DNA of 64,000 nucleotides from an uncultured Anaerolineales bacterium (GTDB taxonomy: Bacteria; Chloroflexota; Anaerolineae; UBA7937). The notes under the pieces are model-generated. The model ran no database searches. It was not told the DNA's origin and was given only the letters and a program-made list of their open reading frames with translations. Below, piece after piece: positions 1 through 44,843 of the stretch. The position numbers were made by a program, and so were the translations under genes. The number at the start of each line of letters is the position of its first letter. Positions within the stretch are counted from its first letter, which is position 1. Location: positions 24,566 through 88,565 of the forward strand of contig CAYLIE010000005.1 in assembly GCA_964383935.1 (NCBI GenBank), given 5' to 3'.

Positions 1-1517
1 ATAGGGTATTCGATCTGGGGCTCTTTCACCCTGCCGAAGTCGTAAAACCCTTCTGGCAACTCCTGAGCATGGGAAAGGCCTCGTTGTAGGAGGATATACC
101 CCTCCTTGGCGGCCAAGATGCCGAACCCTTCCTCGCCGAGAAGGGTATCAAAGAGCCTCTTTTGATCGTTGGGATGGATGGGCCAAGAATCGGCGCTCAC
201 ATCGAAGAAGACGTACTCGGCGTCCTCCACCTTGGGGAACATATAGATCTTCGGCCTCCGGCTCAGATGGGGGTTCAACCTGGACTGGGCGGAGACGATA
301 GCTCCCTCTGGTATCAAGGCCATAAGCTCCTTGGCCAAGCGATGATGGGAGGTGACCCTTGGGATCTGGAAACCCGCGGCCAGGGGAGTGAAACCATGGC
401 CCCGGTGGTAAAGGAGGGTGGAGATGAGTACCAAGGCCGATGCTAGGTATAGAAGGGTTTGCCGCTTCACCCCCAGACGGGGGGATAGGTGCACCACCAA
501 ATAGTCAATCCCCAGGATAGCGGAGAGGACGACAAAAGGGACTAGAGGCGCCGCGTAATGGAACTTCTCCAAGGTGTAGAATTCGGACTTGGTGCTCAAA
601 AGGTTGATGGCCAAGGTGGGGGCAAAGAGGAGGAGAACCTGGGGGGCCAGGAGGGAAAAGAAGGCCACGGGGGCCAAAAGGCCCCACAGGTAGAGAGCCT
701 TATCCTTGATAAAGAGATTGGAGATGACCAGATCCGGCCTAGTCAGAAGGCCCTTCAATATCCCAAAGGGGCCTCCTCCTAAGTAGCCATAGGCCGCAAG
801 GTAGGGCGACTCCCCCTCAGGGTTATAATGAGGGATCATGATATAGACCGCTACGATAAACCAAGTCACCCCCAGGGAGATAGCGGTCAGCCCTACTCGC
901 CAGTCGTGCTGCACAACGAGGGCATATAGCCCCATCATTATCACCAGAAGTGGCATCTCCTCCTTACAAGCCATAACCAAGAAGGAGAAGAGGAAGAACC
1001 ACGGGTACTTCCTCTTCCATAGATAGTAGAAAGCGTAAAGGAGAAGAGGGGCCGCTATAGTGGTAGGGTGAAAGTCGAACATGTTGGCCGCCTCTAGGGC
1101 CGGGAAGAGGAGGTAAACTAGGGGGAAGACCAGGGTAACCAGACTCTCCCCGAACATCTCCTTGGCTAGCCAAAAAAGAGGCAAGGCCCCTAAGGCTACG
1201 ACCAGCGTCTGGAATACGAGAAGCGTCTTGGGGTCGCTATAGAGGAGATAGAGAGGGGAGATGAGAATTAAGATGGGGTCCACATGGTAGGCCAGACGAG
1301 TCCCCTCCTCCCCCCAGTTGGTGAAGGGCAAGAAGCGGCCTCGCAGGCTGTTCCAGACCGCCTGATCCATATTGCCCAGGTCGAAGGCGGTGGTCTGAAA
1401 AGCCTCGTGTTTGAGAATGGCAAGGGTGCTGAAAAGGGCTATATAGAGGAGCACCATCCCCCAAAAGAGACCCCTCACCAGCCGTCTGTGACCCAGCACC
1501 GATGACACCCTATCCAT
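1..1517 (-). CDS. DUF2079-like multi-pass membrane protein (GT-C superfamily), 3'-partial at window edge
   Basis: Not in the ORF track because it runs off the edge. Hand translation from ATG at 1517 (overlaps upstream TAG, SD GAGGTGG): MDRVSSVLGHRRLVRGLFWGMVLLYIALFSTLAILKHEAFQTTAFDLGNMDQAVWNSLRG...HVDPILILISPLY. The same frame reads LPEGFYDFGRVKEPQIEYP at the edge. The FDLG-x-x-DQA-W motif is typical of DUF2079. Confidence 0.8.
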   Translation of the reverse strand, partial: MDRVSSVLGHRRLVRGLFWGMVLLYIALFSTLAILKHEAFQTTAFDLGNMDQAVWNSLRGRFLPFTNWGEEGTRLAYHVDPILILISPLYLLYSDPKTLLVFQTLVVALGALPLFWLAKEMFGESLVTLVFPLVYLLFPALEAANMFDFHPTTIAAPLLLYAFYYLWKRKYPWFFLFSFLVMACKEEMPLLVIMMGLYALVVQHDWRVGLTAISLGVTWFIVAVYIMIPHYNPEGESPYLAAYGYLGGGPFGILKGLLTRPDLVISNLFIKDKALYLWGLLAPVAFFSLLAPQVLLLFAPTLAINLLSTKSEFYTLEKFHYAAPLVPFVVLSAILGIDYLVVHLSPRLGVKRQTLLYLASALVLISTLLYHRGHGFTPLAAGFQIPRVTSHHRLAKELMALIPEGAIVSAQSRLNPHLSRRPKIYMFPKVEDAEYVFFDVSADSWPIHPNDQKRLFDTLLGEEGFGILAAKEGYILLQRGLSHAQELPEGFYDFGRVKEPQIEYP

Positions 1518-4167
1518 CCACCACCTCTACTGTCCCCAATGAAACCCTATCACCTATCACCCAGCCGCCCTGGCCTACAATAGGCAGCCGCTCCCCGCTT
1601 ACGGGATCATACATCCCCACCACTAACTCATAGCTCCCAGAAAGCGTACCTTCACTCACCAATATCCCATACCTGTCCACTATCTCCTCGCCTATCTCCC
1701 ATCCCGTCGTCGGCTTAGAACCCCCCACTGGCTCGCTATCCCTCTGAGCCACCAACCTCCCTGCCCCATCCATCAGATGCACAAATACCTTATAGTCCTT
1801 GCTTACCTCTCCGCTAGCCTCCCAATATAGCGTCAACCTCATTACCTCTCCGACCTTCACCTCCTCATCCCACAGCCTATAACCCAGAAGCGTGACCTCT
1901 TCCCCCAAGTTCAACCGCAGGGGTTGCTCTGTGGCCACCCCTTCTCGCCCGAAAGATGTGCCATAGAGCACTAATCGCACCCCTCCATACCACCTCTCCC
2001 AAGCCCGATACCCATGCCGATTCAACCACCCCTCCACAGAATGCATCTCCTCTATCTCTCCCTCATCCCAAAACACGCCAAAAATACGACCATGCCGAGA
2101 GACGATCTCTTCTAACTCCCCCTCCATCTCCTCAGCTGATGCTCCCTCCCTAGGAAGGGGATAGATCCCTACATCTCCCCTCCAATATCGAGCCAATACC
2201 TCCACCTGCTCGGGAGGAACGATGATCATACCATCTCCTTCCCTGGCTAGGCTATCGACCCCCTCCCCTATGCCTCTATAATCGTCAGGGTTATATCCCC
2301 CAGCCAGGTGATACCTCTTCCGATAGAGATATACCGTCTCCCCATTCGGTAATGGATACTCCTCCGCCAACTGGAAGATCTCTTGGAAGAAGGCTGGACT
2401 CTCCCGCAACCGTTCCATGGCCTCTCTTGCATCTTCGTTTAGCCCAACGTATGAACCGCCTTTGAACACCACGTAGTCACACTCGAAAAGCTTGGGATAT
2501 ATGGGCGGTTCCTCCTGTCCTCGAGCCAAATTGCGAAGTTCTATCCCCGCATATTGCTCCTCGCTCATGATCAGGTACCCGAGAAGGATAGGGTTCAGAT
2601 AGCGGCGGCTTATAAGCACCCCCAATTCTACCCTCTCCCTTCCCTCTGTACCCATCTCCTCCTTTATCAAGTCTAAGATGCGGGGGGCGATCCAGTAGGC
2701 CTTATCGGTGGGTCCAGAGGCGGGAAGGACCCCTTCGACAAAGAGGTTCAGACGCCCAAAGAGCGGCAGATTTAAGATCGCCCCCTCGCGCAGCCCTTCG
2801 AAGCCGTCGTAGGAGAGAGCAAAGAATTCAACCATCCCCACCGAGATTAAAGCCACAATTAGCAACCCTTTCAGCATCGTTTTTCTCACTTTGAAAAAGC
2901 CCTGGGCGGCGACGATGGCTGCCGAGGGGAGAAGAGCCACATCGAAGCGGGGGTTCTTGGTCAGAGAGAAGGTGAAGATGAGGAAAGGAACCACAAACCA
3001 GAGAACGAGGATCCAACTGCTGTCGCTGATCCTCTGCAGCCCCTCCCTAAAAGAGCCTCCCTTCCAATAATAAAGGGATATAAGGAGGGCCACCAGGAGG
3101 GCAAAGAAGTAGAGGGGTGACATCTGCTCAAAAACCAGATAATGGAGATAGCGGGTATAGGCGTGGGACTCCAGAAAGGTGAACTCCCGCCCCTCTATAT
3201 TCACCCCCCCATAGGCCACGACAAAAAACCGACGGAGGTAGTCGATATTGGGCAACGACCAGATCGAGCCCACCACCATCCCTAAAAAGAGGGCACTCAA
3301 GAGGTTCGTCCCCTGGCTTGCTTTCCGAGAGAGGAGATAGAAGGTGGAGGCCACCAGCGCCCAGGAGATGGGAAGGAGCCAGGGACCCAAAAGGAAGCGA
3401 AGCACCTGATCCCAATTGGGCAGATACCAAACGGTAACCAGGATGAAGCCGACCACCATATGCACCCCAGGGGAACTCAAAAGGCAGATCAGGAGAGAGG
3501 ATTCTTTCCTCCTCTGCCTGAAAGATCTCAGGTCCCGTATGGCTCCTGATCTGACGATCACATACACCACTGGTCCGGCTACGAAGGCCAGAAACTGCCA
3601 CTTGATCAAAAGCCCCAACCCAAAGGTGAGCCCGAAAAGCAGGGAATGCAGCCGGTCCCGAAAGCGATCTGCCTTGAGTAGGAAGTAGATGTTTAGGGCC
3701 ACCATGGCCGTAAGGGGAAAGTCAGGGTAGAGGGTGCGGGAGAGGTGGAAGAGAAAAGGGTAGGTGGAAACCAAGAAGGCAGACAGCAGCCCCACTCCAG
3801 AGCCATAGAGCCTCTTCCCTATCCCATAGACTGAGAAAAGGAGAATGGCGATGTAGAAAGAGTTGCTCATCAGGGCCACATCGGTGGAGACGCCAAAGAG
3901 ACGGTACAAGAGCACGGCAGGAAGCCAGGGCAAGGGGGGGCGGTTCCAAGACCAAGTGAAGGCCTGAAAGAGACTCCGTATATCTATCTCCTTCAATATA
4001 TTATTGTAGACGATGGTCTTGCCCAGGTGGGAGATGGGATCCCAACCGAGAAGGGTCACGTTAGCCCGGAAATAGAACCAGTTGTTGACCCAGTGGAAGA
4101 CCACCAAGGACCCCACAATCAGGGGGTAGAGCCATCGAGGCTCGATAAATGGCCTATCCCGCTTCAT
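1510..4167 (-). CDS. GT-C fold (ArnT/PMT-like) membrane glycosyltransferase with C-terminal extracytoplasmic Ig-like domain
   Basis: 885 aa. Many TM segments, WD acidic motif in the first outer loop (LGWDPISHL), LIKWQF and NPRFDVALLP motifs. C-terminal LTLYW...DYKVFVHL...PTTGW..GE...D.Y...G.Y.LVVGMYD domain. Confidence 0.85.
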   Translation of the reverse strand: MKRDRPFIEPRWLYPLIVGSLVVFHWVNNWFYFRANVTLLGWDPISHLGKTIVYNNILKEIDIRSLFQAFTWSWNRPPLPWLPAVLLYRLFGVSTDVALMSNSFYIAILLFSVYGIGKRLYGSGVGLLSAFLVSTYPFLFHLSRTLYPDFPLTAMVALNIYFLLKADRFRDRLHSLLFGLTFGLGLLIKWQFLAFVAGPVVYVIVRSGAIRDLRSFRQRRKESSLLICLLSSPGVHMVVGFILVTVWYLPNWDQVLRFLLGPWLLPISWALVASTFYLLSRKASQGTNLLSALFLGMVVGSIWSLPNIDYLRRFFVVAYGGVNIEGREFTFLESHAYTRYLHYLVFEQMSPLYFFALLVALLISLYYWKGGSFREGLQRISDSSWILVLWFVVPFLIFTFSLTKNPRFDVALLPSAAIVAAQGFFKVRKTMLKGLLIVALISVGMVEFFALSYDGFEGLREGAILNLPLFGRLNLFVEGVLPASGPTDKAYWIAPRILDLIKEEMGTEGRERVELGVLISRRYLNPILLGYLIMSEEQYAGIELRNLARGQEEPPIYPKLFECDYVVFKGGSYVGLNEDAREAMERLRESPAFFQEIFQLAEEYPLPNGETVYLYRKRYHLAGGYNPDDYRGIGEGVDSLAREGDGMIIVPPEQVEVLARYWRGDVGIYPLPREGASAEEMEGELEEIVSRHGRIFGVFWDEGEIEEMHSVEGWLNRHGYRAWERWYGGVRLVLYGTSFGREGVATEQPLRLNLGEEVTLLGYRLWDEEVKVGEVMRLTLYWEASGEVSKDYKVFVHLMDGAGRLVAQRDSEPVGGSKPTTGWEIGEEIVDRYGILVSEGTLSGSYELVVGMYDPVSGERLPIVGQGGWVIGDRVSLGTVEVVDG

Positions 4168-4192
4168 AAGACCTACTCCCCACCTACGATCT

Positions 4193-4524
4193 CTAAGGTT
4201 TCGATACCATCACCCCCAGCCCCATACGAAAATCGTCTCCCACATCCCAAGGGGGGGGCTCCATCCTCACTATCTCGCCCACTTTCCATCTGCTAGCAGG
4301 ATACCAGAGAGCCTTAATCATCAGCCTAAAGGTAGTTCTTCGATGCCCCTCTTCATCATAGAAGAAAGGGTAATCGTAAAACACCTCTGGCAACTCCTGA
4401 GCATCGGAAAGGCCTCATTGTAGATCGCCAGCCAAAATACGCCGAAACCCTGGGCGATCAAGCCCCCGGCGCGCCCCATAACATCCGACCAACCTCTTCC
4501 CAAGATGCGCCGTGAAGCGTTCAT
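4193..4524 (-). pseudogene. Degenerate relic of the C-terminal part of the DUF2079-like gene
   Basis: 4375-4423 matches 41-89 at 45/49 nt. The codon CGA at 81-83 is TGA at 4415-4417, and there is an upstream frameshift (GFGV in one frame, LPEVFYDY in another). Confidence 0.75.
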
Positions 4525-4528
4525 CTCC

Positions 4529-6901
4529 CTACTCCCCACCCACCGGTATCTCTCCTAGAGAGATGAAATCGCTGATCACTTCTCCGGTTTCGTCCAAGAG
4601 GGGCAACCGTTCCATCGTGGAAAGGAGGTACATACCTGCCAGCAACCGGTACTCTCCCCACGGCGCATCGGGCTTTACTGAAACGGAATGCTCATCGACC
4701 ACCATATCTCCCAGGTCCCAGTAAGAGGTAGGATAGAAGCCATGCCGGGGCTGGCTATCCTCTTGACCCCAAATCAGATCATCATCCCCCGCCAGGTGAA
4801 CGAAGACGGTATAATCCTCATCGATGACCCCCTCGGCTCGCCAGTATAAAGTTAAGGGGAAAGCCTCGCCTGGTCGTACGTTCGACTGAGGCAAGTCATA
4901 TCCTAGAAGGGTAATTACCCCCCCCAGGTTGGCCTCCAGCCGATGACTGGGCTCAGCCACCACACCCCCAGAGAGGTGGATGAAATCGAGGGTCATCTTG
5001 TCCCCCACCACATCCCCTTTTGAGCCAAGGATGGAGAGGCGATCCTGGGTATCGGCCTCATAGAGGCCTAGATCCAGCCGGTATAGACCCGGCTGAGCGC
5101 TCTCGGGCAAGGAGAGCCGATGTCTATCCCGCACCACCTCCTCCGGTGGCCAGAAAGCCGGTGGGTAGAGGGCCTGCAAGGGCTCCTTGTCATCCTGGGC
5201 TACCCGCTCCCCGTCCTCGCCTACCAGATGCAAGAAGACCACGTACTCCTTTTGGGGGTCCAGCGCCTGCCAGAAGAGGGTCGCCTCCAACTCGTCACCG
5301 GGGTCGATCTCGTCGGCAAGTAGCTCATACCCTCGAAGCACCATCCGCCCCTCGAAATCAACCGCCAAAGGCTGACGCACCGCTGGAGCGGGCCGCCGTC
5401 GATACCCCTCGGAAAAGAAGACCATGGTGCCCCGTTCCTCGCAGACCAGATCCATCTGATCCAAAACCAACTCCACGAACTCCACATCATACCGAGATTG
5501 GAACCGCCAGCCATCGACTACCAACCAAAGCCGCTTCCCCTCCTTGAGGAGCCTCTCTAACTGAGTTGTGGTATTGAGGAGCTCAGCTCCCGTCCAGCGG
5601 TCAACCAGACGCCCTTCCTCCTCCATAACATAGAACTCGTAACCCCTCTGGATGGTGTAGTAGTCCGCCCGACCCAGGTAGAGCCGGCTGGCCGGCGGGA
5701 TGATGGTCAAAGCCAAGTCATCTGCTTTCCTACGTTCCTGTACATAGCGAAAGGCCAGGTCGTAGCCCCATTCCTGTCGGTAGGCCTCATCCCAGCCCAC
5801 TAGGGCGGTGAAGAGAACGACCAGAACCACGAGCAGAGGCATAACCCACAAGGATGGCCGAGGTGGCAACCCAGTTGGGAATCCAGAGAGCAATCGAACC
5901 ATCAACTCGTTCAATCCCGCCCCAGCCAGAAGAAAGAAGAGGGGCAACACCATAAAAGCGTAACGGGGATCCCGCCACGTGGCCCCGGTCAAAAAGATGA
6001 GCACCACCATGATGGAACCGAAGATGGCGAGAAGATAGCGGGTAGCCACTCCATGCCGTCGCAGGAGGAAAGGGAGACCCAAGATCAAGAGGATAGTCGC
6101 CGGAAGCCGCCAGGGCTCTAGGAAAAAGGGGGCGAAGGCGCGCAACCCTCCCCACCACTTCTGAGGCAGGAGAAGGAGGGGACGCTCTTCTTGGATGGTT
6201 TCCAGATGGCCCGGCTGACCCACCAGGTTCAGGAGAAAGATAGCCCCTATGGCTACCCCTCCCAAGAGGAAAAGCGATAGGTTCTCCCTTCTGACCAGCC
6301 AACGGAGGCCCCGCTCCAGGCCCAAGGCCAGTGCTAGAGCGGGCCACAACAGCGCCGCCTCAGCGTGAGCGAGGAGAGCGCCTACGAAAAGGGCTAGGCC
6401 CAGATATCGGTAACGGACCTTGTCCTGGGCCACGCCACCTTGGTAGAAAAGATATATAGCCGCCAAGGCCAAAAGTTGCAAAAGAGCGTACATCCGAGCC
6501 CGGCCGCTCCAGATTACAGCCTCGGGATCGGTGGCCAACCAGGCGGCCGCTAGAAGCCCCACTATGGGGGAGTAGAAACCACCACCCATCCGGTAGAGAA
6601 GAAGTATAGCCACCAGACCAAGGGCCACATTAGGGAGCCGAAGCAGGCCCTCCTGGAAACCAAAGAGACGAAGGAAAAGAGCCTCCAGGTAAGTGGAGAG
6701 GAGGCCATGACTATAGAGGTCCCCGGTGGGAAGGAGGGGAAGCCCTCGCTGGAGAACGTTCTTAGCCGCCCAGATGGTCATGAACTCGTCGAAGTAGAGG
6801 CTCACCTTGCCCACATAGAGGAGGCGTAAATAGAGACCCAAAATCACTAGGCCCAAAAGAAGGCAAACGAGGATGATCTGCTTCTTCCCTTCGCCTGACA
6901 T
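4529..6901 (-). CDS. GT-C fold membrane glycosyltransferase with two tandem C-terminal Ig-like domains
   Basis: ORF 4529..6925; likely ATG at 6901 (SD GAGGGG). SLYFDEF acidic loop motif, ARMYALL and DPRY motifs. Two copies of the LRGYEL/LLGYDL...LxW...YxVFxHL domain. Confidence 0.85.
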   Translation of the reverse strand: MSGEGKKQIILVCLLLGLVILGLYLRLLYVGKVSLYFDEFMTIWAAKNVLQRGLPLLPTGDLYSHGLLSTYLEALFLRLFGFQEGLLRLPNVALGLVAILLLYRMGGGFYSPIVGLLAAAWLATDPEAVIWSGRARMYALLQLLALAAIYLFYQGGVAQDKVRYRYLGLALFVGALLAHAEAALLWPALALALGLERGLRWLVRRENLSLFLLGGVAIGAIFLLNLVGQPGHLETIQEERPLLLLPQKWWGGLRAFAPFFLEPWRLPATILLILGLPFLLRRHGVATRYLLAIFGSIMVVLIFLTGATWRDPRYAFMVLPLFFLLAGAGLNELMVRLLSGFPTGLPPRPSLWVMPLLVVLVVLFTALVGWDEAYRQEWGYDLAFRYVQERRKADDLALTIIPPASRLYLGRADYYTIQRGYEFYVMEEEGRLVDRWTGAELLNTTTQLERLLKEGKRLWLVVDGWRFQSRYDVEFVELVLDQMDLVCEERGTMVFFSEGYRRRPAPAVRQPLAVDFEGRMVLRGYELLADEIDPGDELEATLFWQALDPQKEYVVFLHLVGEDGERVAQDDKEPLQALYPPAFWPPEEVVRDRHRLSLPESAQPGLYRLDLGLYEADTQDRLSILGSKGDVVGDKMTLDFIHLSGGVVAEPSHRLEANLGGVITLLGYDLPQSNVRPGEAFPLTLYWRAEGVIDEDYTVFVHLAGDDDLIWGQEDSQPRHGFYPTSYWDLGDMVVDEHSVSVKPDAPWGEYRLLAGMYLLSTMERLPLLDETGEVISDFISLGEIPVGGE

Positions 6902-6911
6902 CTCTATCCCC

Positions 6912-9599: not shown

Positions 9600-11721
9600 C
9601 TTCTCCCAGAGAGGGTATGGGCTGGCCGCTCTCCGGGTCCAACATCCCCACCATCAACCGATACTCGCCAGGAGGCAGATCGGGGGGAAGGGAAACCCTG
9701 TGGCGATCCGCCATCACCTCACCTGCCGTCCAAAGGGTGGTGGGATAGAAGCCATCGAAAGGTTGAGCACTCTCCTCCACCCATACCTTTCCCCCCTCAT
9801 CCCTCAGACGGACAAGGACATCATACTTCCTGTCCAAAGGCCTCTCAACCCGCCAATGTAAAGTGAGTTGGAGGTCGCTTCCTGGGAAGAGAGAGGAAGC
9901 CCCTAGGTCGTAGCTCAAAAGGGTCACCACCCCGCCCAAGTCGGCCTCCAGGGTCCGACTGATAGCGGGGGGCTCTCCCCCTAGAAGGAGAGGGGTCTTA
10001 TAGACCCAGGCGTATGCGATGCCGTTGATTCGGGCTACATACTCCGGCTCTAGGGAGCGGAAGAATTCGACCACCAGAGGGTCCGGCCACCCCCTCTGCA
10101 CTTGACTAATGTAGAAGATCACGTAATCGGCCAGCGTCCATACCCCCGTCCAACCCCTCCATTGGAGGGGCATGGTCTCACCCCGAAAATATAAAGCCAC
10201 GCTGCTGGGCCCCCAAGTGGCAACCACCAGATTGGGGGCCTCCTCCTTCCCGTCCAAGTAGCGACCCGCCACATCCAACCCCTCCCCTCCCCCAAAGGCA
10301 AAGAGGCGAGGTGCTAACTCCGCCCCCCCCACCAAGGGGTTAAAGAAGGCCGTATAGTAGGGGGCCAAACGCAACCAGGAGAGGGCTAAGAGGAAGGCCG
10401 CCACCCCAGCCAAGGCTACGTAGGCTCCAAAGGGCCAACGGAACCTCTTGGCTAGCCGAGCCCGCAACCAGGCAAGGAAAGCCACCAAGGTGAGGGCCGC
10501 CAAGATATCCATCACTGGAAAAGCAGGAAGGAAATAGCGGATCAGTTTCTTGCTGCTCAGGGACAACATCACCCCATAAATGATTATATACCCCCAAAGG
10601 AGAGAGAAAGGCTCAAGCAGAGAGGAGCAACCCTCTTGAAGGGAAGAAGATTCTCCCCCTCCTGGCATTAGTCTTCCTCGCCCCATTATCGCCACCCCCA
10701 AGCGATCCTGCGCTCGTTGGCCCTGAGAAGCCTTGAAGGCTAGGAGGCCCAAGATAGCCAAAGACCCCAGGAAGAAAGGGAGGCTCAAGGGGGTCAACTT
10801 GAAGGCGGTGAAGAGGGGGTAGTAGAGCCAGCCAGGGTCATCCACGGGCTGGCCCAGGAAGAAGTTCCCTATCTCATGGGGTTCTAGGACGCCCCAGCGA
10901 GCCACCCGAAACAACTTCCAGATCACAAAGAGGGGCTCTACCCACAAAGCGGGAAAGAGGAGGATGAAGGTGAAAAGCGCCACCCCACACCAGAAGAGGA
11001 AAGCTCCGGCCCATCTCTTAACCTCTCTCTTCTTCCCCAGGAGCCAAAAGTGGCTTCCCAGGGCAAAAGCCACCAAAAGCAGAAGGGAGAGAGCAGGCAG
11101 TTTGGCCAACACCGCTAAGCCTCCACAAATGGCTGAGCCTACGAGATAAGGCTTCCGCCCCTTAACATCTTGCATATAGGCTATAAGGAAGAGTAAGGAT
11201 AAGATCATCCAACTGGCCTGGTGAGCGTCCACGTGCACCACCCTGGAGTGGGCCAGGTAAACAGGGTCCAAGGCCAAAAGCAGACCCCCCAGAAGAGCCG
11301 CCGAGGAGGAGAAGGTGCGCCTCAGGAGCAGGTAAGCAACTACCACTGTAAAGGTGGTGACCAGGACGGTAAAGGTGGCGGCTGCGGGGATCATGGAGAG
11401 TACCTCGTACTGCCCTGTCTCCACCATTCGATAGAAATGGTCCAGGTCGCCGGCCAGAAAGTAGCGAAGCCAGAGAGAGAGCCCGTACCCCCACATGGGG
11501 GAGACCCCGGGATGGTTGATCTGATAGGTGGCCGCCAAATCGCCATGGGCCAGCCCGTAGATGAAGCGGCTGGAGCGCTCCAGCCAACGCATCTCATCGC
11601 CGCTGGCGAAGGCCCCTAACCGCCAAATCCGAGGCAGAAGGGCAGTCAAGAAGAGCAAGGTGGAGATAACCTTCTCTCCCCCAACTTTCCTCTCATCGCC
11701 GAGATAGATATGCCCTTTCAC
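9553..11721 (-). CDS. GT-C fold membrane glycosyltransferase with C-terminal Ig-like domain
   Basis: ORF 9553..11775; likely GTG at 11721. SGDEMRW loop motif, HPGV, AHSRVVHVDA, KKLIRYFLP, GGGEGLD, then a C-terminal LTLHW...PTTLW..GE domain. Confidence 0.85.
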   Translation of the reverse strand: MKGHIYLGDERKVGGEKVISTLLFLTALLPRIWRLGAFASGDEMRWLERSSRFIYGLAHGDLAATYQINHPGVSPMWGYGLSLWLRYFLAGDLDHFYRMVETGQYEVLSMIPAAATFTVLVTTFTVVVAYLLLRRTFSSSAALLGGLLLALDPVYLAHSRVVHVDAHQASWMILSLLFLIAYMQDVKGRKPYLVGSAICGGLAVLAKLPALSLLLLVAFALGSHFWLLGKKREVKRWAGAFLFWCGVALFTFILLFPALWVEPLFVIWKLFRVARWGVLEPHEIGNFFLGQPVDDPGWLYYPLFTAFKLTPLSLPFFLGSLAILGLLAFKASQGQRAQDRLGVAIMGRGRLMPGGGESSSLQEGCSSLLEPFSLLWGYIIIYGVMLSLSSKKLIRYFLPAFPVMDILAALTLVAFLAWLRARLAKRFRWPFGAYVALAGVAAFLLALSWLRLAPYYTAFFNPLVGGAELAPRLFAFGGGEGLDVAGRYLDGKEEAPNLVVATWGPSSVALYFRGETMPLQWRGWTGVWTLADYVIFYISQVQRGWPDPLVVEFFRSLEPEYVARINGIAYAWVYKTPLLLGGEPPAISRTLEADLGGVVTLLSYDLGASSLFPGSDLQLTLHWRVERPLDRKYDVLVRLRDEGGKVWVEESAQPFDGFYPTTLWTAGEVMADRHRVSLPPDLPPGEYRLMVGMLDPESGQPIPSLGEDGIFIGPLQVTAREE

Positions 11722-11740
11722 TTTTTCTTCCCTGTGCCGA

Positions 11741-13279
11741 TCACCCTTTGGTTTGGAAAACGAAGACCCCCTCATCCTGAAAAACTATCATCATCTCCTC
11801 CTCCACCAAAGCCTCAAAATCTTCATCATAACGGGTCTGGAACCTCCCCTCATCAACCACAAACCAGACCCGTGACCCCTCCGAGAGGAGCACCTCTAAC
11901 CCTTCCCTGGAATCGAGCAGCCGACTGCCTACCCAACGATCGATCCACTCACCTCCCCTCTCCCTCATGACGTAGGGTTCATACCCTTTCTGGATGGCGA
12001 AGAAATCGCAACGGGGAAGATAGACCCCACACGCGGCGGGAGCGACCGTCATCACCATATCCTCCTCCCGCCACCTCTCCCTCACATACCTAAAAGCCTG
12101 CTCATAGCCCAACTCTTGTTCAGAGCTCGCTTCTAGGGCGCCTGGCACAGAGAAGAGGGAGAGAGACACCAACGCTATGAGGGTCAACCAACCCTGGCCT
12201 ACCCTGGAAGAGTTTATGCCCCTTCTAGCCCAAGTGGACCTCCCCACCAAGAGAAGCCTGTCCAGAGCCCAGGCCGATACCAGAAACAAGAAAGGCAAGA
12301 GCATAAAGATATACCGCGGATGTTGCCAAGACCTACCTATGAGGGTAGCCACCTCTAAGAGGGCAACGGCCAGGATGAGGTATAGGTACAAAGAAGGCTT
12401 GACCTCCCCTCCCCCTCTCCCCTCGACAACTAAGAAGAATAGCCCCCCCAGGGCGAGGAGGGTGGGAAGAAGGCGGGCCGGCGTGAGGAAGAAAGGTGCC
12501 AAAGGCCTCAGCCCCGCCACCAAGTCCATGGAAGGCCCTAAGGGGGGACGGGAACGGTAGATGGTCTCGAACTGCCCTCCCATGCCGGAAGCGCTATACT
12601 CCTGCAAAAGAAAACGGATTAGCACCCCCAGGCCACAGAGGAGAACAACCAGAGCCACCTCTAATCGCCACGCTCCGCGACGATACAAAAGAAGGAAGAG
12701 ACCCAAGAGCATGGCGGGGAGAAGGAGAGCCACCTCGGCGTGGGAGAAAAGCGCGGCCAAAAAGACGGTGCCCCCTGCCCAGAGGTGGCGAGAACCATCC
12801 TCTTTTAAGCCCGCCTCATAAAAAAGGAAGACCGCCAGGAGGGCTAGAAACTGCTCCCAGGCGTAGGGCCTAGCCCGGGCGGCCCAGAGGATGGCCTCCC
12901 CGTCCAAAGCAAGAAGGAGAGCCGCCATCAAGCCAGCCCGAGGCGCAAAGATCCGCTTTCCCACAAGATAGGCTAGGGGAATGATGAGCAAGCCCGCTAC
13001 TAGGCTGGGGATCCTAGCCATTAAGGGGTCGAGACCGAAGAGATATATAAAGGGGAGATCTAAGTAGGAGAAGAGAAGTCCGGGGCCATAAAAGTTTCCC
13101 GAGGGCAGGATAGGGATTCCCCACCTCCATATCCCCTGAGCAGCAAGTAAGGTGGCGAACTCATCCACAAAGGGGCCCGACCGTAGTAGATAGGAGAAGC
13201 GAAAATAGGAACCCAACAGAAGAACGAGAAGAGGGATGAGTCTTGAAGTGGCTAAGGAACTAAGGAACCTCCTGATCAT
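11741..13279 (-). CDS. GT-C fold membrane glycosyltransferase, paralog of 4529..6901 lacking the Ig-like domains
   Basis: 512 aa. PFVDEF motif, ARPYAW, HPRY. Its IDRWVG/RFQTRY segment matches VDRWTG/RFQSRY in the 4529 protein. Confidence 0.85.
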   Translation of the reverse strand: MIRRFLSSLATSRLIPLLVLLLGSYFRFSYLLRSGPFVDEFATLLAAQGIWRWGIPILPSGNFYGPGLLFSYLDLPFIYLFGLDPLMARIPSLVAGLLIIPLAYLVGKRIFAPRAGLMAALLLALDGEAILWAARARPYAWEQFLALLAVFLFYEAGLKEDGSRHLWAGGTVFLAALFSHAEVALLLPAMLLGLFLLLYRRGAWRLEVALVVLLCGLGVLIRFLLQEYSASGMGGQFETIYRSRPPLGPSMDLVAGLRPLAPFFLTPARLLPTLLALGGLFFLVVEGRGGGEVKPSLYLYLILAVALLEVATLIGRSWQHPRYIFMLLPFLFLVSAWALDRLLLVGRSTWARRGINSSRVGQGWLTLIALVSLSLFSVPGALEASSEQELGYEQAFRYVRERWREEDMVMTVAPAACGVYLPRCDFFAIQKGYEPYVMRERGGEWIDRWVGSRLLDSREGLEVLLSEGSRVWFVVDEGRFQTRYDEDFEALVEEEMMIVFQDEGVFVFQTKG

Positions 13280-14235
13280 CTTACCCGGTCGCCATCGAAC
13301 GATGCTATGGAGAGTACCGAGCCTCCTGAAGGCGCTACCTTTTCCGCCACCACCGTGATGCGGCTGCCCTGGCCCAAAGCCCCCAAGAAAAGGGTTAAGG
13401 GCGCGAAGAGGAAGAGGCAGAAAGGGTTCTCTATTCTCAACCGCTCAGTCAGAAATCCAGGCGTCCCCTTCTCTTGGAGGACATAACGTAGACTCCCAAT
13501 CCAGATATTGGGGGTATAACTATGACCGATGCGACGAACCCGAAAGCGGTGCTTGGCTAGCAAGTTGAAGAGGGTCTTTTTTGTGAAGTGATAAAGATGG
13601 CGCGGCAGGTCGAGATCGTACCAGAACCGGCCCATGAGTTTGGCCTCCCAGGAACCTATGTCTGGGAGGGTCAAAAAGCAGAGCCCACCATCCGCTAGGA
13701 GACGACGAACCTCCCCTAGAGTGTGAGAGGGGCTGGGTAGATGCTCCAAAACATGTCGTAGGATGATTAAGTCGAAAGCCTCGTCGGCCAACCCTGCCTC
13801 CTCCAAGGTTCCGGTGACTACCTCCAAACCCCGCTCTTTTGCTACCTGGGCCGCGTAAGGGCTCGGCTCCAACCCCATGACCGACCATCCCCTCACCTGT
13901 TGCAAGGCAGCCAGATACTCCCCTGTCCCACACCCTACCTCCAATACCCGTCCCACCTCGCCTATCAAACCCCTCATCCTCCTTACTTCCCTTTCCAGCA
14001 AGGTTCGCCGCAGAAGGCCCGTCAGCCCTCCTTGGATAAAGGCAAAGGCTGAGTATTGGGAAGGGTAATAGCGGGAGACCCCCTCTGGGGTGGGACGAGG
14101 GTTAGTATAGATCAGCCCGCAATTTCGACAGCGAACGACCCCGAACTCCTCCTCTCCACCCAATAACCGGTCCTTGCCGCTTAGGAGAGACTCCACATTG
14201 TCCAGCCCGCAGAGGTCACACTTCGCCCACTCCAT
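13276..14235 (-). CDS. Class I SAM-dependent methyltransferase with N-terminal Cys cluster
   Basis: VLEVGCGTG motif I, LRHVLEHL, N-terminal CDLC...CRNC, and WYDLDLPRHLYHF typical of polysaccharide-locus methyltransferases. Confidence 0.85.
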   Translation of the reverse strand: MEWAKCDLCGLDNVESLLSGKDRLLGGEEEFGVVRCRNCGLIYTNPRPTPEGVSRYYPSQYSAFAFIQGGLTGLLRRTLLEREVRRMRGLIGEVGRVLEVGCGTGEYLAALQQVRGWSVMGLEPSPYAAQVAKERGLEVVTGTLEEAGLADEAFDLIILRHVLEHLPSPSHTLGEVRRLLADGGLCFLTLPDIGSWEAKLMGRFWYDLDLPRHLYHFTKKTLFNLLAKHRFRVRRIGHSYTPNIWIGSLRYVLQEKGTPGFLTERLRIENPFCLFLFAPLTLFLGALGQGSRITVVAEKVAPSGGSVLSIASFDGDRVR

Positions 14236-15395
14236 CAGGCAACCAAGGCTCTATAGCATTCCATCAACTCGCGCGCCGTATTGTCCCAGGATAACCGCTC
14301 CACAGCCCTTTCTCTCAAACGTGCACCTAACTCCTTAGCCCAAGCCTCGTCGTTCAGGGCCTTCAGCAATGCTTTCGCCAAAGAGGCTGGATCGCCCAGC
14401 CTGGCGTACACCCCCCACTGGCCCAAAATCTCTCGGTTAACCGGGGTGTCAAAGGCTACCGTGGCCAAACCGCTGGCCATGTAGTTGCAAAGTTTGCCGT
14501 TCGACTCCGTCTCGGCCAATTTGGGAGAGACAGCCACATCCCCTAGGGCTAGATAGCGGGGGGCCAAGCGATAGTCGATCCTTCCCGTGAAGGTCACGCT
14601 CTCAGCGATCCCCAGATCCTCAGCCCTCCTCTTATACCATTCCACGTTGGGATAACCCATGATCAAAAAATGAGCCTTCTGAAACCCCTCCAGCACCAAA
14701 GGGATGGTCTCCAAAAGACAATCGAGCCCTTGATACCTGGTCAAGAGTCCTAGGTATACCACCACCCTTCTCCCTTTCGGTATTCTGAGGGGTAGATCAT
14801 CGTATGATAGACCAGGCCGGAACTCCTCGGTGTCTACTCCGTCCAAGGCCACCACCGCCTCTTTGACCCCGAACCTCTCGCGCAACTCGTCCGCCACCCG
14901 ACTGGAGGAAGCCACCGCTACATCAGCCAGGCTGTCTATGGTCCCTTCTGCTCGGTGCAGAAAAGAATACAGATAGCGGTTCCCCCTCAAAAACCCATGA
15001 GCCCGCAGTTCACCCGTGAGGCTCCCCTGGAAATCGCCCAGCAAGGGGAGGCCCAGGAGCCAGCCTAGGACATAGCCGATAACCACCCCTTCGTGGAGAT
15101 GGGCATGGATCAGGTGGGGCTTGAACCGCCGGGCTACGGATAGGGATTTGAAAAGGAGGAGAAGGTCGAGGTAAAGTTTATGAAGGGAGGGACCCGCTTC
15201 TAATTTTCCATACCAGGGTACATTTATGGTGCGATGGATCTCCAGGCCAGGGAGATCGCGACCCAGATGATAGGTGCAAATAGCCACCCTGTTTCCCAGT
15301 TCTTGGAGAGCCCTCGTCTCCTCAAAGATGCGCACATGAGCGCCACGGTCGGCGAAGAAAGGCGTGGGGGCAATCATCAGGATCCGGTACATCAC
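14235..15395 (-). CDS. Glycosyltransferase family 4 (GT-B)
   Basis: 386 aa. GLLTRYQGLD, ESNGKLCNYMASG and a C-terminal SWD..A pattern. Confidence 0.9.
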   Translation of the reverse strand: MMYRILMIAPTPFFADRGAHVRIFEETRALQELGNRVAICTYHLGRDLPGLEIHRTINVPWYGKLEAGPSLHKLYLDLLLLFKSLSVARRFKPHLIHAHLHEGVVIGYVLGWLLGLPLLGDFQGSLTGELRAHGFLRGNRYLYSFLHRAEGTIDSLADVAVASSSRVADELRERFGVKEAVVALDGVDTEEFRPGLSYDDLPLRIPKGRRVVVYLGLLTRYQGLDCLLETIPLVLEGFQKAHFLIMGYPNVEWYKRRAEDLGIAESVTFTGRIDYRLAPRYLALGDVAVSPKLAETESNGKLCNYMASGLATVAFDTPVNREILGQWGVYARLGDPASLAKALLKALNDEAWAKELGARLRERAVERLSWDNTARELMECYRALVA

Positions 15396-16345
15396 TCCCC
15401 ATCCAATATCTCGCGCACGGCGTAGATCGGCTTCCCTTGAGATTCGTGATAGGTACGTACTACCAACTCCCCCAAGAGCCCCATGGTCACCAGTTGCACC
15501 CCCACCATAGTCAAAAGGATGGCTAAAAGCACCAGGGGCCTATCGGCGATGGGCTGTTGCAATACAACCCTTACAAAGCCCAGATAGGCCAGAAGCACCC
15601 CCCCGATTAAGAAAGAGAGGAAACCCAGAAGCCCAAAGATCTGCACCGGTCGGGTAGAGTAACTCAGGAGAAACCTCACGGTCAGAAGGTCTAGAAGCAC
15701 TCTGATGGTGCGGGAGAGGCCATATTTGGTCCGCCCGGAGCCCCGAGGGCGATGGTTCACCGGTACCTCCGTCACCCGTACCCCCATCCAGGAAGCCAGA
15801 GCGGGGATGAAACGGTGGAGTTCGCCATAAAGCCTGATGTTCTTCACCACCTCGCGGCGATAAGCCTTTAGAGAACAGCCATAGTCATGGAGCCGGACGC
15901 CGGTGATCTCGGAGATGAGCCAATTGGCGAGCATGGAGGGGAAGCGGCGCGTCAAGAAGGGGTCGTGACGATCTACCCGCCAGCCGCTTACCACATCGTA
16001 CCCCTCCTCAAGTTTTGCCAGGAGCCGTGGTATATCCGCTGGATCGTTTTGTAGGTCGGCATCTAAAGTGACGATCATCTCTCCCCGGGCCACATCGAAC
16101 CCCGCGGCGAAGGCTGCCGTCTGGCCGAAGTTGCGCCTAAACCGGATCACCCTCACCCGGGGCTCCTCCTCGTGAACTCTCTTGAGAACGGTGAAGCTAT
16201 CATCGGTACTGCCGTCGTCAACGGCCAGGATCTCATATTCCACCTCCAAGCCCTGCAGAGCCTCTCTTATCTCCCGATAGAGGGGCTCGATGTTCCCTTC
16301 TTCGTTGTAGATGGGGATGACTATAGATAGGGCAACGTCCTTCAT
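15392..16345 (-). CDS. GT2 polyprenol-phosphate glycosyltransferase (ArnC/GtrB/DPM-like)
   Basis: SIVIPIYNEE, DDGSTD, RRNFGQTAA, LDADLQNDP, GELHRFIP, two C-terminal TM helices. Confidence 0.92.
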   Translation of the reverse strand: MKDVALSIVIPIYNEEGNIEPLYREIREALQGLEVEYEILAVDDGSTDDSFTVLKRVHEEEPRVRVIRFRRNFGQTAAFAAGFDVARGEMIVTLDADLQNDPADIPRLLAKLEEGYDVVSGWRVDRHDPFLTRRFPSMLANWLISEITGVRLHDYGCSLKAYRREVVKNIRLYGELHRFIPALASWMGVRVTEVPVNHRPRGSGRTKYGLSRTIRVLLDLLTVRFLLSYSTRPVQIFGLLGFLSFLIGGVLLAYLGFVRVVLQQPIADRPLVLLAILLTMVGVQLVTMGLLGELVVRTYHESQGKPIYAVREILDGE

Positions 16346-16383
16346 GGAGATGGCATCCTCCCTAAAGCAGAAGCCTGATACCC

Positions 16384-16412
16384 ATTATACCCCTACCCCC
16401 GCCTCCTGACAA
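16384..16412 (-). promoter_or_regulatory. sigma70/sigmaA promoter for the GT2-GT4-MTase-GT-C operon
   Basis: Minus strand TTGTCA (16412-16407), 17 nt spacer, TATAAT (16389-16384). Confidence 0.8.
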
Positions 16413-16449
16413 GCCATAAAAACACCCTCGGCTTATCAAGCCGAGGGTG
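16413..16449 (-). terminator. Rho-independent terminator of the DUF1080-like gene
   Basis: Perfect 12-bp stem CACCCTCGGCTT/AAGCCGAGGGTG (16423-16449) followed by TTTTT on the minus strand. Confidence 0.85.
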
Positions 16450-16486: not shown

Positions 16487-17326
16487 TCATGGTAAGGGCG
16501 TTACCAGCACATCGTCAAAGACCACATTGGCGCATTTATAGGTCTTAAAGCCCACCGTCCCTTCTAGGAAAACGGTGTCGTTCTTGAGCCCGTCATCCGG
16601 GATGGGGCTATCATCGTAGTCTATGAGCAATTGACCATCGAGATAGCATTTAATCCTAGCCCCCTGTACCTCCACTTTAAGCGTATGCCACTGGCTTTTG
16701 TCGATGGTCATGGATGCGGAAGCCAACGACCGGGGGTTGTTGAAATCCCAAAGGTTCCAGGTATTGACACAAGCCGCCCCCACGCAGTCATCCTCGGTCT
16801 GCATCTGCAAGAGGGAGGCCTCGCTGCCGCTCATTATGAAATAGTAGCCCCCTACATTCCCGGCAGCGGCGTCATCTTCAGAATAGGTCCCCCTGAACCA
16901 GAGGCCAGCCTTCGACCCACTCCTGATGATCACCTTGGCTTCGAAACTGTAGTCGGTCCACTCCTGACTGCCCTCTTGGATGTACATGCTTAAGGCATCG
17001 TGAGCTTCGGCGCCTCCCAGATTCTTGTTATGTCGATAGCCACCACCGACATAGCCCGTCCCCGCCTCCCAGAACCATTGCTCAGATTTCAGCCGCCAAT
17101 AGTTCAGGAAAGGCGTCCAATTATCAGCGTCGGTATCGAAATGATCTTCCAGTGAGGCCGGGCTAGGGGTCGAATACTCCTTCATCACCAGAGGCAAGAA
17201 AACCTCGGTGGTCTCCTGTGCTAAGCTACTGCCGCCTCCTCCCCAAAGAAACAAGACGATTATAGCCATACTTCCCAGAGCCACTGCTACTCCTGGCATC
17301 CCTCTGCCTAGTACCCATTTCCCCAC
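16487..17326 (-). CDS. Secreted DUF1080-like (3-keto-disaccharide hydrolase / concanavalin-like beta-sandwich) protein
   Basis: ORF 16487..17389; likely GTG at 17326 (SD GAGGAGG). Signal peptide ending SSLA-Q, EVFLPLVMKEY motif, WTDYSFEAKV...GLWFR...WHTLKVEVQG..IKCYLDG...GTVGFK..FDDV pattern. Confidence 0.75.
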   Translation of the reverse strand: MGKWVLGRGMPGVAVALGSMAIIVLFLWGGGGSSLAQETTEVFLPLVMKEYSTPSPASLEDHFDTDADNWTPFLNYWRLKSEQWFWEAGTGYVGGGYRHNKNLGGAEAHDALSMYIQEGSQEWTDYSFEAKVIIRSGSKAGLWFRGTYSEDDAAAGNVGGYYFIMSGSEASLLQMQTEDDCVGAACVNTWNLWDFNNPRSLASASMTIDKSQWHTLKVEVQGARIKCYLDGQLLIDYDDSPIPDDGLKNDTVFLEGTVGFKTYKCANVVFDDVLVTPLP

Positions 17327-17401
17327 CCGAACCTCCTCTCCTCTATCTAGGCTAATTCTCCCTCTGGGGTATAAACTGTGGATCTGCAACCAGTGACGGC
17401 C

Positions 17402-18247: not shown

Positions 18248-19198
18248 CTACTCCAAGATGCGGCGGACGGAATACTCTTCCTCCGGTTGATAGGCGAAAT
18301 TTCTGATCATCTCGCCCAAGAGCCCGATGGAGATCAGTTGCACACCCACGATCATAAAGAGGATCCCCAGGAAGAGCAAGGGCCGCCAACCGATCCCCTG
18401 ACCAGCGAACCAAAGCACCGTTAAGTAGAGACCGATGGCAAACCCTGCGGTAAAGAGAAGAGCACCGATGGTCCCGAAAAGTTGTAATGGCCTCCTAAGA
18501 TAGTAGGTCAGGAAAAGGACCACCAGAAAGTCCACGAAGCCTCGGCCCAAGCGGCTGAGGCCATATTTGGACTGGCCATACCTTCGGGGATGGTGAACTA
18601 CCTCCACCTCCGCCACTCGATAGCCCCGCCAATGGGCGAGGACGGGGATGAAACGGTGGAGCTCTCCGTATATCTTGACCCCTTGGGCCACCTCCCGTCG
18701 ATAGGCCTTGAAGCCGCTGTTCAGGTCATGCAACTTCACCCCAGTGAGGGTGCAGACCACTCCGTTGAAGATACGGGAGGGCAGGGTCTTAGAGAGAGGG
18801 TCCTTGCGATATCGCCGCCAGGCAGAGACCAGGTCATAACCCTCTTCTAAAGGTCCTAGAAGTTTGGGGATCTCGCCAGGGTCGTCCTGAAGATCGGCGT
18901 CTAGGGTAACGATTACCTCACCCCTCGCCTGGTTGAAGCCGGAGGCTAGAGCCGCCGTCTTTCCGAAATTACGCCGGAATTGGATAACCCGCACATGTTC
19001 TTGGCCCTCGGCATGCAACCGCTCTAGAATCTCATAGGAGTTGTCGGTACTTCCATCGTCAATGAATACGATCTCGTACCCCTTATCCAGACCTTCCAGA
19101 GTCTCCCGGAGAGCCTGGTAGAGAGGCTCGATGTTCTCCTCCTCATTAAAGAGGGGCACCACTACAGAGATCTCAAGAGAACAACCTTGTTTAACCAT
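18248..19198 (-). CDS. GT2 polyprenol-phosphate glycosyltransferase, paralog of 15392..16345
   Basis: ORF to 19225; likely ATG at 19198. SVVVPLFNEE, DDGSTD, RRNFGKTAA, LDADLQDDP, GELHRFIP, two C-terminal TMs. Confidence 0.92.
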   Translation of the reverse strand: MVKQGCSLEISVVVPLFNEEENIEPLYQALRETLEGLDKGYEIVFIDDGSTDNSYEILERLHAEGQEHVRVIQFRRNFGKTAALASGFNQARGEVIVTLDADLQDDPGEIPKLLGPLEEGYDLVSAWRRYRKDPLSKTLPSRIFNGVVCTLTGVKLHDLNSGFKAYRREVAQGVKIYGELHRFIPVLAHWRGYRVAEVEVVHHPRRYGQSKYGLSRLGRGFVDFLVVLFLTYYLRRPLQLFGTIGALLFTAGFAIGLYLTVLWFAGQGIGWRPLLFLGILFMIVGVQLISIGLLGEMIRNFAYQPEEEYSVRRILE

Positions 19199-19221
19199 TT
19201 CGACCCCCCGGATAGATACAA

Positions 19222-40004: not shown

Positions 40005-40036
40005 CTTTAACCCCTTTGCTTGTTTTGAGCTATCAG

Positions 40037-41946
<1,910 letters not shown>

Positions 41947-41953
41947 GACTTGA

Positions 41954-42757: not shown

Positions 42758-42761
42758 CAGA

Positions 42762-44764: not shown

Positions 44765-44792
44765 AAAATTAGGGCCGGTCTTGCTCCGGCCC
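44765..44792 (-). terminator. Second terminator-like hairpin in the mtnA leader
   Basis: GGGCCGG-AGCAAGA-CCGGCCC followed by TAATTTTTT. Confidence 0.5.
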
Positions 44793-44801
44793 AAACGCTT
44801 C

Positions 44802-44832: not shown

Positions 44833-44843
44833 GCAACATGACT

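Follow-up and report, generated by a model that had tools for sequence, protein, structure and literature searches.

A gene array of predicted GT-C-type membrane glycosyltransferases sharing an uncatalogued β-sandwich module in an Anaerolineae bacterium

The nine-gene array and its predicted donor synthase

We analysed a 64-kb stretch of DNA from an uncultured Anaerolineales bacterium of the phylum Chloroflexota (contig CAYLIE010000005.1, positions 24,566 to 88,565), hereafter termed the window. Positions 1-16412 of the window hold an array of nine consecutive minus-strand genes, which encode a glycosyltransferase of family 2 (GT2), a GT4 glycosyltransferase, an S-adenosylmethionine (SAM)-dependent methyltransferase and six multi-pass membrane proteins, termed C1 to C6, that an initial annotation of the locus had read as GT-C glycosyltransferases. 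Gene families, the folds of C4 and of a C-terminal module that recurs in the array, membrane topology, conserved motifs, synteny and distribution were computed directly. The features of the array, in the direction of transcription, are:

16423..16449, minus strand: intrinsic terminator of the upstream gene, 12-bp stem with 8 G-C pairs followed by a T-run; upstream boundary of the array's unit
16384..16412, minus strand: promoter-like site TTGTCA-17-TATAAT, matching the consensus at 11 of 12 positions
15392..16345, minus strand: GT2, 317 aa; Pfam Glycos_transf_2, 1.6e-33
14235..15395, minus strand: GT4, 386 aa; cytoplasmic GT-B glycosyltransferase, Pfam GT4/group 1 families
13276..14235, minus strand: SAM methyltransferase, 319 aa; Pfam Methyltransf_23, 2.6e-27
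11741..13279, minus strand: C1, 512 aa; PMT_2 GT-C, D39-E40 in the first loop, without the module
9553..11775, minus strand: C2, 740 aa; PMT_2/PMT GT-C, D60-E61, one module
6912..9599, minus strand: C3, 895 aa as listed; PMT_2 GT-C, W-D motif, one module
4529..6925, minus strand: C4, 798 aa; ArnT-like GT-C, D46-E47, two modules
4190..4430, minus strand: DUF2079 remnant, a decayed and internally deleted 3' part in the C4-C5 gap
1510..4167, minus strand: C5, 885 aa; PMT_2 GT-C, W42-D43, one module
1..1517, minus strand: C6, DUF2079 multi-pass membrane protein (Pfam 6.9e-73), first 505 aa in the window, the rest beyond its edge

The gene preceding the array ends at 16487 and is followed, in this order, by the terminator, the promoter-like site, a GGGAGGA Shine-Dalgarno site about 8 nt before the start codon of GT2 and the ATG itself (16345). 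Across the region promoter-like matches do not exceed chance (11 found versus 8.4 ± 3.0 expected). The promoter that had been annotated at 16384-16412, ahead of GT2, GT4, the methyltransferase and the membrane protein genes, therefore rests on its position and statistical support for it was rejected; the nine minus-strand genes behind it were recovered as described. At seven of the eight junctions the neighbouring genes overlap, by 1-47 nt, in line with the overlapping or near-abutting genes of the initial annotation, from which the 361-bp gap between C4 and C5, with its DUF2079 remnant, departs. Judged from this layout, the nine genes would be co-transcribed as one unit. The true start of C3 possibly lies about 27 codons downstream of the listed one, as comparison with its orthologue in a close relative (JBHIDN010000001, termed L004) indicates. 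Over positions 1-16000 the plus-strand AT skew is strongly positive (0.13-0.28), and it is close to zero elsewhere in the window; this fits the T-rich coding strand expected of very hydrophobic membrane proteins. A mobile or foreign island was considered and rejected, the window being free of tRNA genes, composition breaks and transposases.

GT2 aligns essentially from end to end with enzymes that load sugars onto polyprenyl phosphate: residues 6-314 of its 317 with the solved ArnC (3.5e-65) and residues 4-313 with GtrB of Synechocystis (sll0501; 3.5e-48). It also matches the dolichol-phosphate mannose synthase (DPMS) of Pyrococcus (9e-22), and hydropathy places two C-terminal membrane helices at residues 234-252 and 271-289. 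By sequence, GT2 is related over its full length to ArnC, GtrB and DPMS, all of them polyprenyl-phosphate sugar synthases, which agrees with its earlier assignment as a polyprenol-phosphate-sugar synthase. It is not an ArnC orthologue, since it reaches 240.9 bits with NCBIfam NF007986 against an equivalog cut-off of 529, and it also remains well under the NCBIfam equivalog cut-off for PgfS. Thus, what the sequence makes clear is the class of the enzyme. The best solved relative of the GT4 protein is PimA, a weak match restricted to the C-terminal half (6e-11). The methyltransferase, with a CxxC...CxxC zinc ribbon at its N-terminus and a hydrophobic helix at its C-terminus, is similar to TcaB9 and mycarose 3-C-MT, both zinc-ribbon sugar C-methyltransferases.

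GT-C-type proteins and their β-sandwich module

Hidden Markov model (HMM) searches, which had been proposed as a check, assign C1-C5 to PMT_2 (36.8-57.5 bits versus a Pfam cut-off of 26.1) and C6 to DUF2079 (PF09852). C2 additionally exceeds the Pfam cut-off for PMT (32.4 versus 22.7 bits). In pairwise comparison the six proteins fall into four sequence groups, namely C1/C4 (40% identity), C3/C5 (48%), C2 alone and DUF2079. We modelled C4 with AlphaFold2 (AF2), using an alignment of 83 homologues, and obtained a predicted local distance difference test score (pLDDT) of 93.4 and a predicted template-modelling score (pTM) of 0.86. The model comprises a helical membrane domain (residues 11-381), an α/β periplasmic domain (388-505) and two β-sandwiches (516-651 and 661-795). 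Its best fold match in the PDB is ArnT (5f15; E 2.7e-10, template-modelling (TM) score 0.60 normalised to ArnT), followed by EmbA/B/C, AglB, PglB, STT3, ALG9/12 and Pmt4. Only the fold search linked C4 to ArnT, as neither C5 alone nor the C4 family profile has a match among PDB sequences. C1, C2, C3 and C5 show 8-11 hydrophobic segments each by hydropathy; a structural match to GT-C enzymes was obtained for C4. A GT-C type is thereby supported for the five PMT_2 proteins, through the predicted structure in the case of C4. Their genomic link to the ArnC/GtrB-like GT2 suggests that they may use a polyprenyl-phosphate sugar as the donor.

An acidic motif in the first outer loop had been annotated for each of the membrane proteins. 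It is present in all six, 10-20 residues past the first membrane helix, and is invariant in the homologues examined: D46-E47 of C4 in 83 sequences, D60-E61 of C2 in 23 of 23 homologues, W42-D43 of C5 in nine of nine and D46 of the DUF2079 protein in five of five.

The repeated module reported for four of the five ArnT/PMT-like proteins was found in five copies, with its consensus reproduced and a length of about 135 aa:

9556..9954, minus strand: module copy in C2, aa 608-740
6915..7322, minus strand: module copy in C3, aa 760-895
4979..5386, minus strand: module copy 1 in C4, aa 514-649
4532..4942, minus strand: module copy 2 in C4, aa 662-798
1513..1923, minus strand: module copy in C5, aa 749-885; the copy used for modelling

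The copies are 32-50% identical to each other, C1 has none, and an HMM built from the five recovered nothing further in the 64-kb window. Searched against Pfam-A (2025) up to an E value of 10, the five copies gave no match better than E 0.024; NCBIfam r20 returned no relevant match, and profiles of 5 and of 125 sequences found no match among PDB sequences. Matches to plectin, RbmA and CCDC105 at the sequence level were discarded as noise. The Pfam domain Wzt_C (PF14524) appears sporadically and below threshold on some copies of the module (13-19 bits versus a cut-off of 30.4), and on the copies of the window it reaches 13 bits at best (E 0.1). The module is thus a domain absent from Pfam, NCBIfam and the PDB sequences.

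A model of the C5 copy, built from the 125-sequence alignment, is an all-β sandwich of very high predicted accuracy (pLDDT 97.4), as expected from the earlier description of the module as immunoglobulin (Ig)-like. Its best fold match in the PDB is the carbohydrate-binding domain of Aquifex Wzt with bound 3-O-methyl-mannose (E 1.8e-5, TM 0.65); further matches are CARDB, the fibronectin type III (FnIII)-like domain of GH3 enzymes, the Vibrio biofilm scaffold RbmA and Ig-like lipid binders. Over 757 copies, W34 and W75 are conserved at 98-99%, and L32, Y44, D62, P65, P71, T72, D83, G96, Y98 and Y105 at more than 80% each. The module directly follows the ArnT-like periplasmic domain of C4, and no hydrophobic segment occurs past residue 381, which places it outside the cytoplasm, again as initially proposed. 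The structure prediction and fold search suggested at that stage therefore connect C4 to ArnT and the module to the Wzt domain; they returned neither a C4 that lacks the GT-C fold nor a characterised module with a known acceptor. We regard a carbohydrate-binding function as a reasonable lead, not as a result. Together with the conserved Trp, Tyr and Asp residues, the moderate likeness to the Wzt fold suggests that the module may recognise the acceptor or tether the enzyme.

To map the distribution of the module, which had likewise been proposed, we scanned 1.84 billion representative proteins in full with HMMER and counted clusters at 50% identity. The module is present in 28,543 clusters at E <= 1e-3 and in 19,513 at E <= 1e-10. 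The best 150 matches have two to four tandem copies per protein, and the residues that follow the last copy number 0 in the median and 24 at most, which places the module at the extreme C-terminus. Among 48 full-length carriers sampled, nearly all match a GT-C family. The Pfam counts are PMT_2 35, PMT 12, PTPS_related 9, TMEM260-like 4, STT3 3 (weakly), DUF2079 1 and YfhO 1, and the module itself is not covered. Every named source among the top matches belongs to the Anaerolineae or to the Chloroflexi/Chloroflexota, and on the basis of these named matches the module appears to be centred on Chloroflexota. A tblastn search of the module against 72,556 plasmids gave no match. The module is shared by at least five GT-C families that differ in their catalytic cores, so that it more likely recognises a feature common to them, be it a polymer backbone, the wall or a partner, than the specific acceptor epitope of each enzyme. 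In the literature that could be searched we found no paper that treats DUF2079, GT-C arrays in Chloroflexota or a role of PF03706 in flipping lipid-linked sugars, nor any description of the module, although for a domain without a name one could have been missed.

Relatives of the array and its surroundings

Proteins from Anaerolineae metagenome bins come closest, at about 90% identity, and three close relatives retain the array. Looser arrays of several GT-C genes, accompanied by the module, a GT2, LPG_synthase_TM, DUF2079 and a GT87-like gene, occur in relatives at 41-46% identity. The most informative order is that of the close relative already mentioned:

L004 (JBHIDN010000001), in order: GT4, methyltransferase, C1, extra 741-aa protein, C2, C3, C4, C5, DUF2079, LPG_synthase_TM, third C3/C5-type GT-C

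Its DUF2079 protein is full-length (795 aa) and ends in one degenerate and one complete module, and the third C3/C5-type GT-C carries the module as well. This gene order indicates that the array reaches past the edge of the window and comprises up to eight GT-C-type genes. The extra protein between C1 and C2 is a YfhO/PTPS-like multi-pass protein without a Pfam match and without the module. Its gene is found in two relatives (L004 3390-5615, L001 2981-5194) and is absent from the window despite a protein identity of about 89%. LPG_synthase_TM, which resembles the flippase domain of MprF, follows the GT-C array in both a close and a distant relative (L004 18140-19099, L002 12474-13433). Synteny suggests that in the genome of the window it probably lies just past position 1, and it could be the protein that flips the lipid-linked donor.

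The remnant in the C4-C5 gap contains 50 nt that are 92% identical to positions 40-89 of the window, and its translation matches residues 478-602 of the full-length DUF2079 protein of L004 (E 1e-25). A shorter DUF2079 remnant occupies the equivalent place in L004 and L001, which points to an old duplication followed by decay. Together, the remnant and the paralogue pairs show an array that evolves through the duplication, loss and decay of its genes.

Up to 44.8 kb the window is all minus strand and reads as a glycan island, in which a sugar-nucleotide and Wzx glycan cluster of about 28 kb surrounds the array. Directly upstream of the array lies a gene for a secreted concanavalin-like protein of PF06439 ("3-keto-disaccharide hydrolase"; 16487-17389, minus strand). 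A PF06439 protein is also found upstream of the array in the relative at 46% identity (L002 1-1124), which suggests a recurring association. The island continues with a hexapeptide acyltransferase, a second GT2 and a GDSL esterase protein, then with a phosphodiesterase, a Wzx-type flippase, a methyltransferase, a B12-radical SAM enzyme and three GT4 genes, and finally with a further GT2, sugar epimerases and dehydratases including GDP-mannose 4,6-dehydratase, a phosphomannomutase and a polyprenyl synthase. The second GT2 is again related to the donor synthases:

18248..19225, minus strand: second ArnC/GtrB-like GT2, 325 aa, two C-terminal membrane helices; 1.3e-54 to ArnC

It is encoded 2 kb upstream of the array in a neighbouring unit, beside the hexapeptide acyltransferase, and, to judge from its sequence, may provide a second lipid-linked donor. 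The initial annotation mentions neither this gene nor the cluster of about 28 kb, nor does it note that the operon, as far as it lies inside the window, has no flippase gene.

The second GT2 gene overlaps the end of the GDSL esterase gene (19222-22026, minus strand). The latter encodes a 934-aa secreted protein with a central GDSL esterase domain, flanked by about 400 aa of repeated W-rich units at the N-terminus and a C-terminal region of about 350 aa, the flanking parts having no Pfam match. At its far end the island runs into the genes of SAM metabolism. A SAM riboswitch (44891-45042, minus strand; 51.5 bits) heads a SAM-cycle and methionine-salvage operon (38799-44839, minus strand), with genes for an MtnA-like isomerase, a PfkB kinase, GNAT and NUDIX proteins, S-adenosylhomocysteine hydrolase and an archaeal-type SAM synthetase (PF01941, 1e-165), and this operon continues directly into the sugar-nucleotide genes of the glycan cluster. 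Finally, positions 46641-52067 (minus strand) encode a 1067-aa GH57 protein with a C-terminal S-layer homology (SLH)-like glucodextranase binding module, followed by an α-amylase-family protein and a sugar ATP-binding cassette (ABC) transporter, and form a separate α-glucan utilisation locus.

Proposed function of the array and alternative readings

In mycobacteria and corynebacteria, the pathway for lipomannan (LM), lipoarabinomannan (LAM) and arabinogalactan employs Ppm1, the GT4 enzymes PimA/PimB and the GT-C enzymes PimE, MptA-C, EmbA/B/C and AftA-D. A GT4 primes inside, whereas outside the membrane many GT-C enzymes that are fed by polyprenyl-phosphate sugars lengthen the glycolipid or glycan; the embCAB genes form a GT-C array in tandem. 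The array of the window likewise has many GT-C-type enzymes, its GT4 has PimA as its best solved relative, and Emb proteins are among the fold matches of C4. However, it belongs to another phylum, has PMT_2 and DUF2079 families instead of the Emb family, and no solved structure resembles its module in sequence. EmbC ends in a lectin-like extracytoplasmic carbohydrate-binding module (CBM; PMC3044687), and AftD has extracytoplasmic CBMs as well (bioRxiv 10.1101/2019.12.22.885152). A second precedent is extracytoplasmic glycosylation by three-component systems (GtrA/GtrB/Gtr* and Citrobacter ORF15/14/12; PMC11127046). There too, a GT2-type polyprenyl-phosphate sugar synthase is encoded together with an extracytoplasmic GT-C, and GT2 of the array aligns with GtrB over its full length. 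Unlike these systems, the array has one synthase, with a second 2 kb upstream, for six or more GT-C-type genes instead of one, lacks a GtrA, SMR or MATE flippase in the operon within the window, and includes a GT4 and a methyltransferase; unlike Gtr*, its GT-C proteins end in a β-sandwich module. The three-component logic and the multiplicity of enzymes in LM/LAM synthesis, with the CBMs of EmbC and AftD, make the initial statement that no characterised pathway has this layout too strong. What sets the array apart from these precedents is the phylum, the GT-C families, the six to eight GT-C-type genes behind one promoter, the lack of a flippase in the operon as far as the window shows it and, above all, a very abundant accessory domain that is not catalogued.

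Two individual domains invite a closer comparison. The match of C4 to ArnT (GT83; PDB 5f15, 5ezm), which transfers 4-amino-arabinose to lipid A, covers both the membrane and the α/β periplasmic domains, and the partner GT2 is ArnC-like. There is, however, no match at the sequence level, GT2 scores below the ArnC cut-off, and ArnT has no β-sandwich modules. Moreover, ArnT acts on lipid A, and Chloroflexi are reported to lack lipopolysaccharide, with the question of one versus two membranes still debated (PMC8871954). As for the C-terminal domain of Wzt (PF14524; PDB 8dky, 6o14, 5hno), it is a β-sandwich of similar size and the best fold match of the module. It recognises the terminal methylated sugar of a polymer, and the operon of the array encodes a methyltransferase. 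The Wzt domain, in contrast, is cytoplasmic and sits on the ATPase of an ABC transporter, whereas the module is extracytoplasmic and sits on GT-C proteins, at 12% identity.

We propose, with middling confidence, that the array is one Anaerolineae transcription unit whose products assemble a cell-surface glycan, or add branches to one, at the outer face of the cytoplasmic membrane; the donor sugar, flippase, acceptor, module ligand and co-transcription are the parts of this model that we infer. GT2 would transfer a sugar from a nucleotide sugar to polyprenyl phosphate at the inner face, where the GT4 and the zinc-ribbon methyltransferase would probably prime or modify the acceptor or the sugar on the cytoplasmic side. 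The lipid-linked donor would then be flipped, possibly by the LPG_synthase_TM protein that relatives encode beyond the stretch corresponding to the window. On the outside, each of the four GT-C groups would use the invariant acidic residue of the first loop to transfer the sugar to a different position of the acceptor. The modules, in one to four copies, would act like CBMs and hold a common feature of the polymer or wall beside the active site, comparable to the CBM of mycobacterial EmbC. The acceptor would most likely be the polysaccharide of the adjacent Wzx/sugar-nucleotide cluster or a lipoglycan primed by the GT4.

Several observations weigh against this model. The initial count of six GT-C proteins is borne out for C1-C5 and is less firm for C6, a DUF2079 protein that is incomplete in the window. 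A profile-profile comparison (hhalign) of the N-terminal part of DUF2079 with the C4 family gives a probability of 5.8%, from a shallow alignment of four sequences, and a profile of the full-length protein matches the C4 family in the shared C-terminal modules alone. The hints for a GT-C nature of DUF2079 are indirect and consist of its similar architecture, the invariant Asp of the first loop and the C-terminal module of full-length orthologues. The likeness of the module to its nearest solved folds is moderate (TM 0.5-0.65, 12-16% identity), and generic Ig-like folds (RhoGDI, Der p 2, CARDB, arrestin) match it almost equally well. No GtrA, SMR or MATE flippase gene lies within positions 1-16412, and the sole flippase-like gene of the window, a Wzx-type Polysacc_synt gene (23756-25285), is part of another unit. 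Moreover, actinobacterial enzymes of the PMT family glycosylate proteins and not glycans (PMC8698208). Finally, gene content varies among relatives that are about 89% identical, a pattern more in keeping with variable decoration than with a fixed assembly line.

This last point leads to the alternative that survives best, although it overlaps, as do the others, with the model above and with the remaining ones. The GT-C paralogues may not be successive steps of one assembly line but side-chain transferases like those of Gtr seroconversion, acting as alternatives or in addition to one another and each placing the same lipid-linked sugar on a different site of a surface polysaccharide, and gain, loss and decay of their genes would diversify the surface, for example against phages. 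The paralogue pairs C1/C4 and C3/C5 and the third C3/C5-type gene of L004 are what such a process would leave behind, and so are the decayed DUF2079 remnant in the C4-C5 gap of the window and its relatives and the YfhO/PTPS-like gene that L001 and L004 have and the window lacks. A single GT2 in the operon for six or more GT-C-type genes is also consistent with it, and the three-component systems provide a precedent (PMC11127046). However, the gene order is otherwise kept in three relatives, and the array shows neither mobile-element genes nor a shift in composition. The four GT-C groups are, moreover, ancient and very divergent, which suggests distinct reactions and not a recent diversification. 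We therefore consider this reading somewhat unlikely, if the most serious of the competitors.

Alternatively, the module could be a scaffold that assembles the GT-C enzymes into a complex or anchors them to the wall or S-layer without contacting the substrate. Its presence in at least five GT-C families, presumably with different acceptors, is compatible with such a role, as are its variable copy number of one to four and the fact that C1 of the array works without it. The tandem pair of C4 furthermore resembles the tandem FnIII scaffold RbmA; RbmA, however, binds polysaccharide. The strong conservation of Trp, Tyr, Asp and Thr over the 757 copies suggests a common small ligand and not a variety of protein partners, and the top fold match is a carbohydrate-binding domain. 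For these reasons a pure scaffold appears unlikely to us.

The remaining alternative, O-glycosylation of Ser/Thr in secreted or S-layer proteins in the manner of actinobacterial Pmt with polyprenyl-phosphate mannose, would have the modules bind protein substrates, like the TPR and MIR domains of the eukaryotic TMTC, TMEM260 and PMT enzymes. We know of no precedent for six or more different protein O-glycosyltransferases in one operon. C2 does exceed the Pfam cut-off for PMT, and the sampled module carriers include 12 of 48 that match PMT and 4 of 48 that are TMEM260-like; TMEM260 itself is a protein O-mannosyltransferase specific to Ig-like IPT domains (PMC10214176), and actinobacterial Pmt is an established protein O-mannosyltransferase (PMC8698208). 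This reading is nonetheless improbable, as the best fold match of C4 is the lipid A glycosyltransferase ArnT, with Pmt4 in 34th place, the operon includes a GT4 and a sugar-type methyltransferase and adjoins a polysaccharide cluster, and the closest fold of the module is a glycan-binding domain.

Beyond the function of this single locus, we tentatively suggest that the module is a new family of carbohydrate- or wall-binding domains, widespread in Chloroflexota and dedicated to GT-C enzymes, and that arrays of this kind might assemble a major undescribed glycopolymer or lipoglycan of the envelope, a counterpart of mycobacterial LM, LAM and arabinogalactan; as a whole, this broader proposal is doubtful.

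Sediments, soils, hot springs and wastewater sludge are rich in Chloroflexota, a phylum with a poorly understood cell envelope. The locus described here is a concrete, testable candidate for a line that builds glycans outside the cytoplasm, and it gains some weight from the reported lack of lipopolysaccharide in Chloroflexi and the debate about their envelope architecture (PMC8871954). The module, with about 28,500 clusters at 50% identity, is a very abundant domain missing from the domain databases, and it could give rise to a new Pfam-type family. Knowing its ligand would help to annotate those proteins and would add a new type of accessory domain to the enzymology of GT-C glycosyltransferases, in which acceptor recognition is the least understood step. 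The isolated module may also provide a handle for probing the surface glycans of Chloroflexota.

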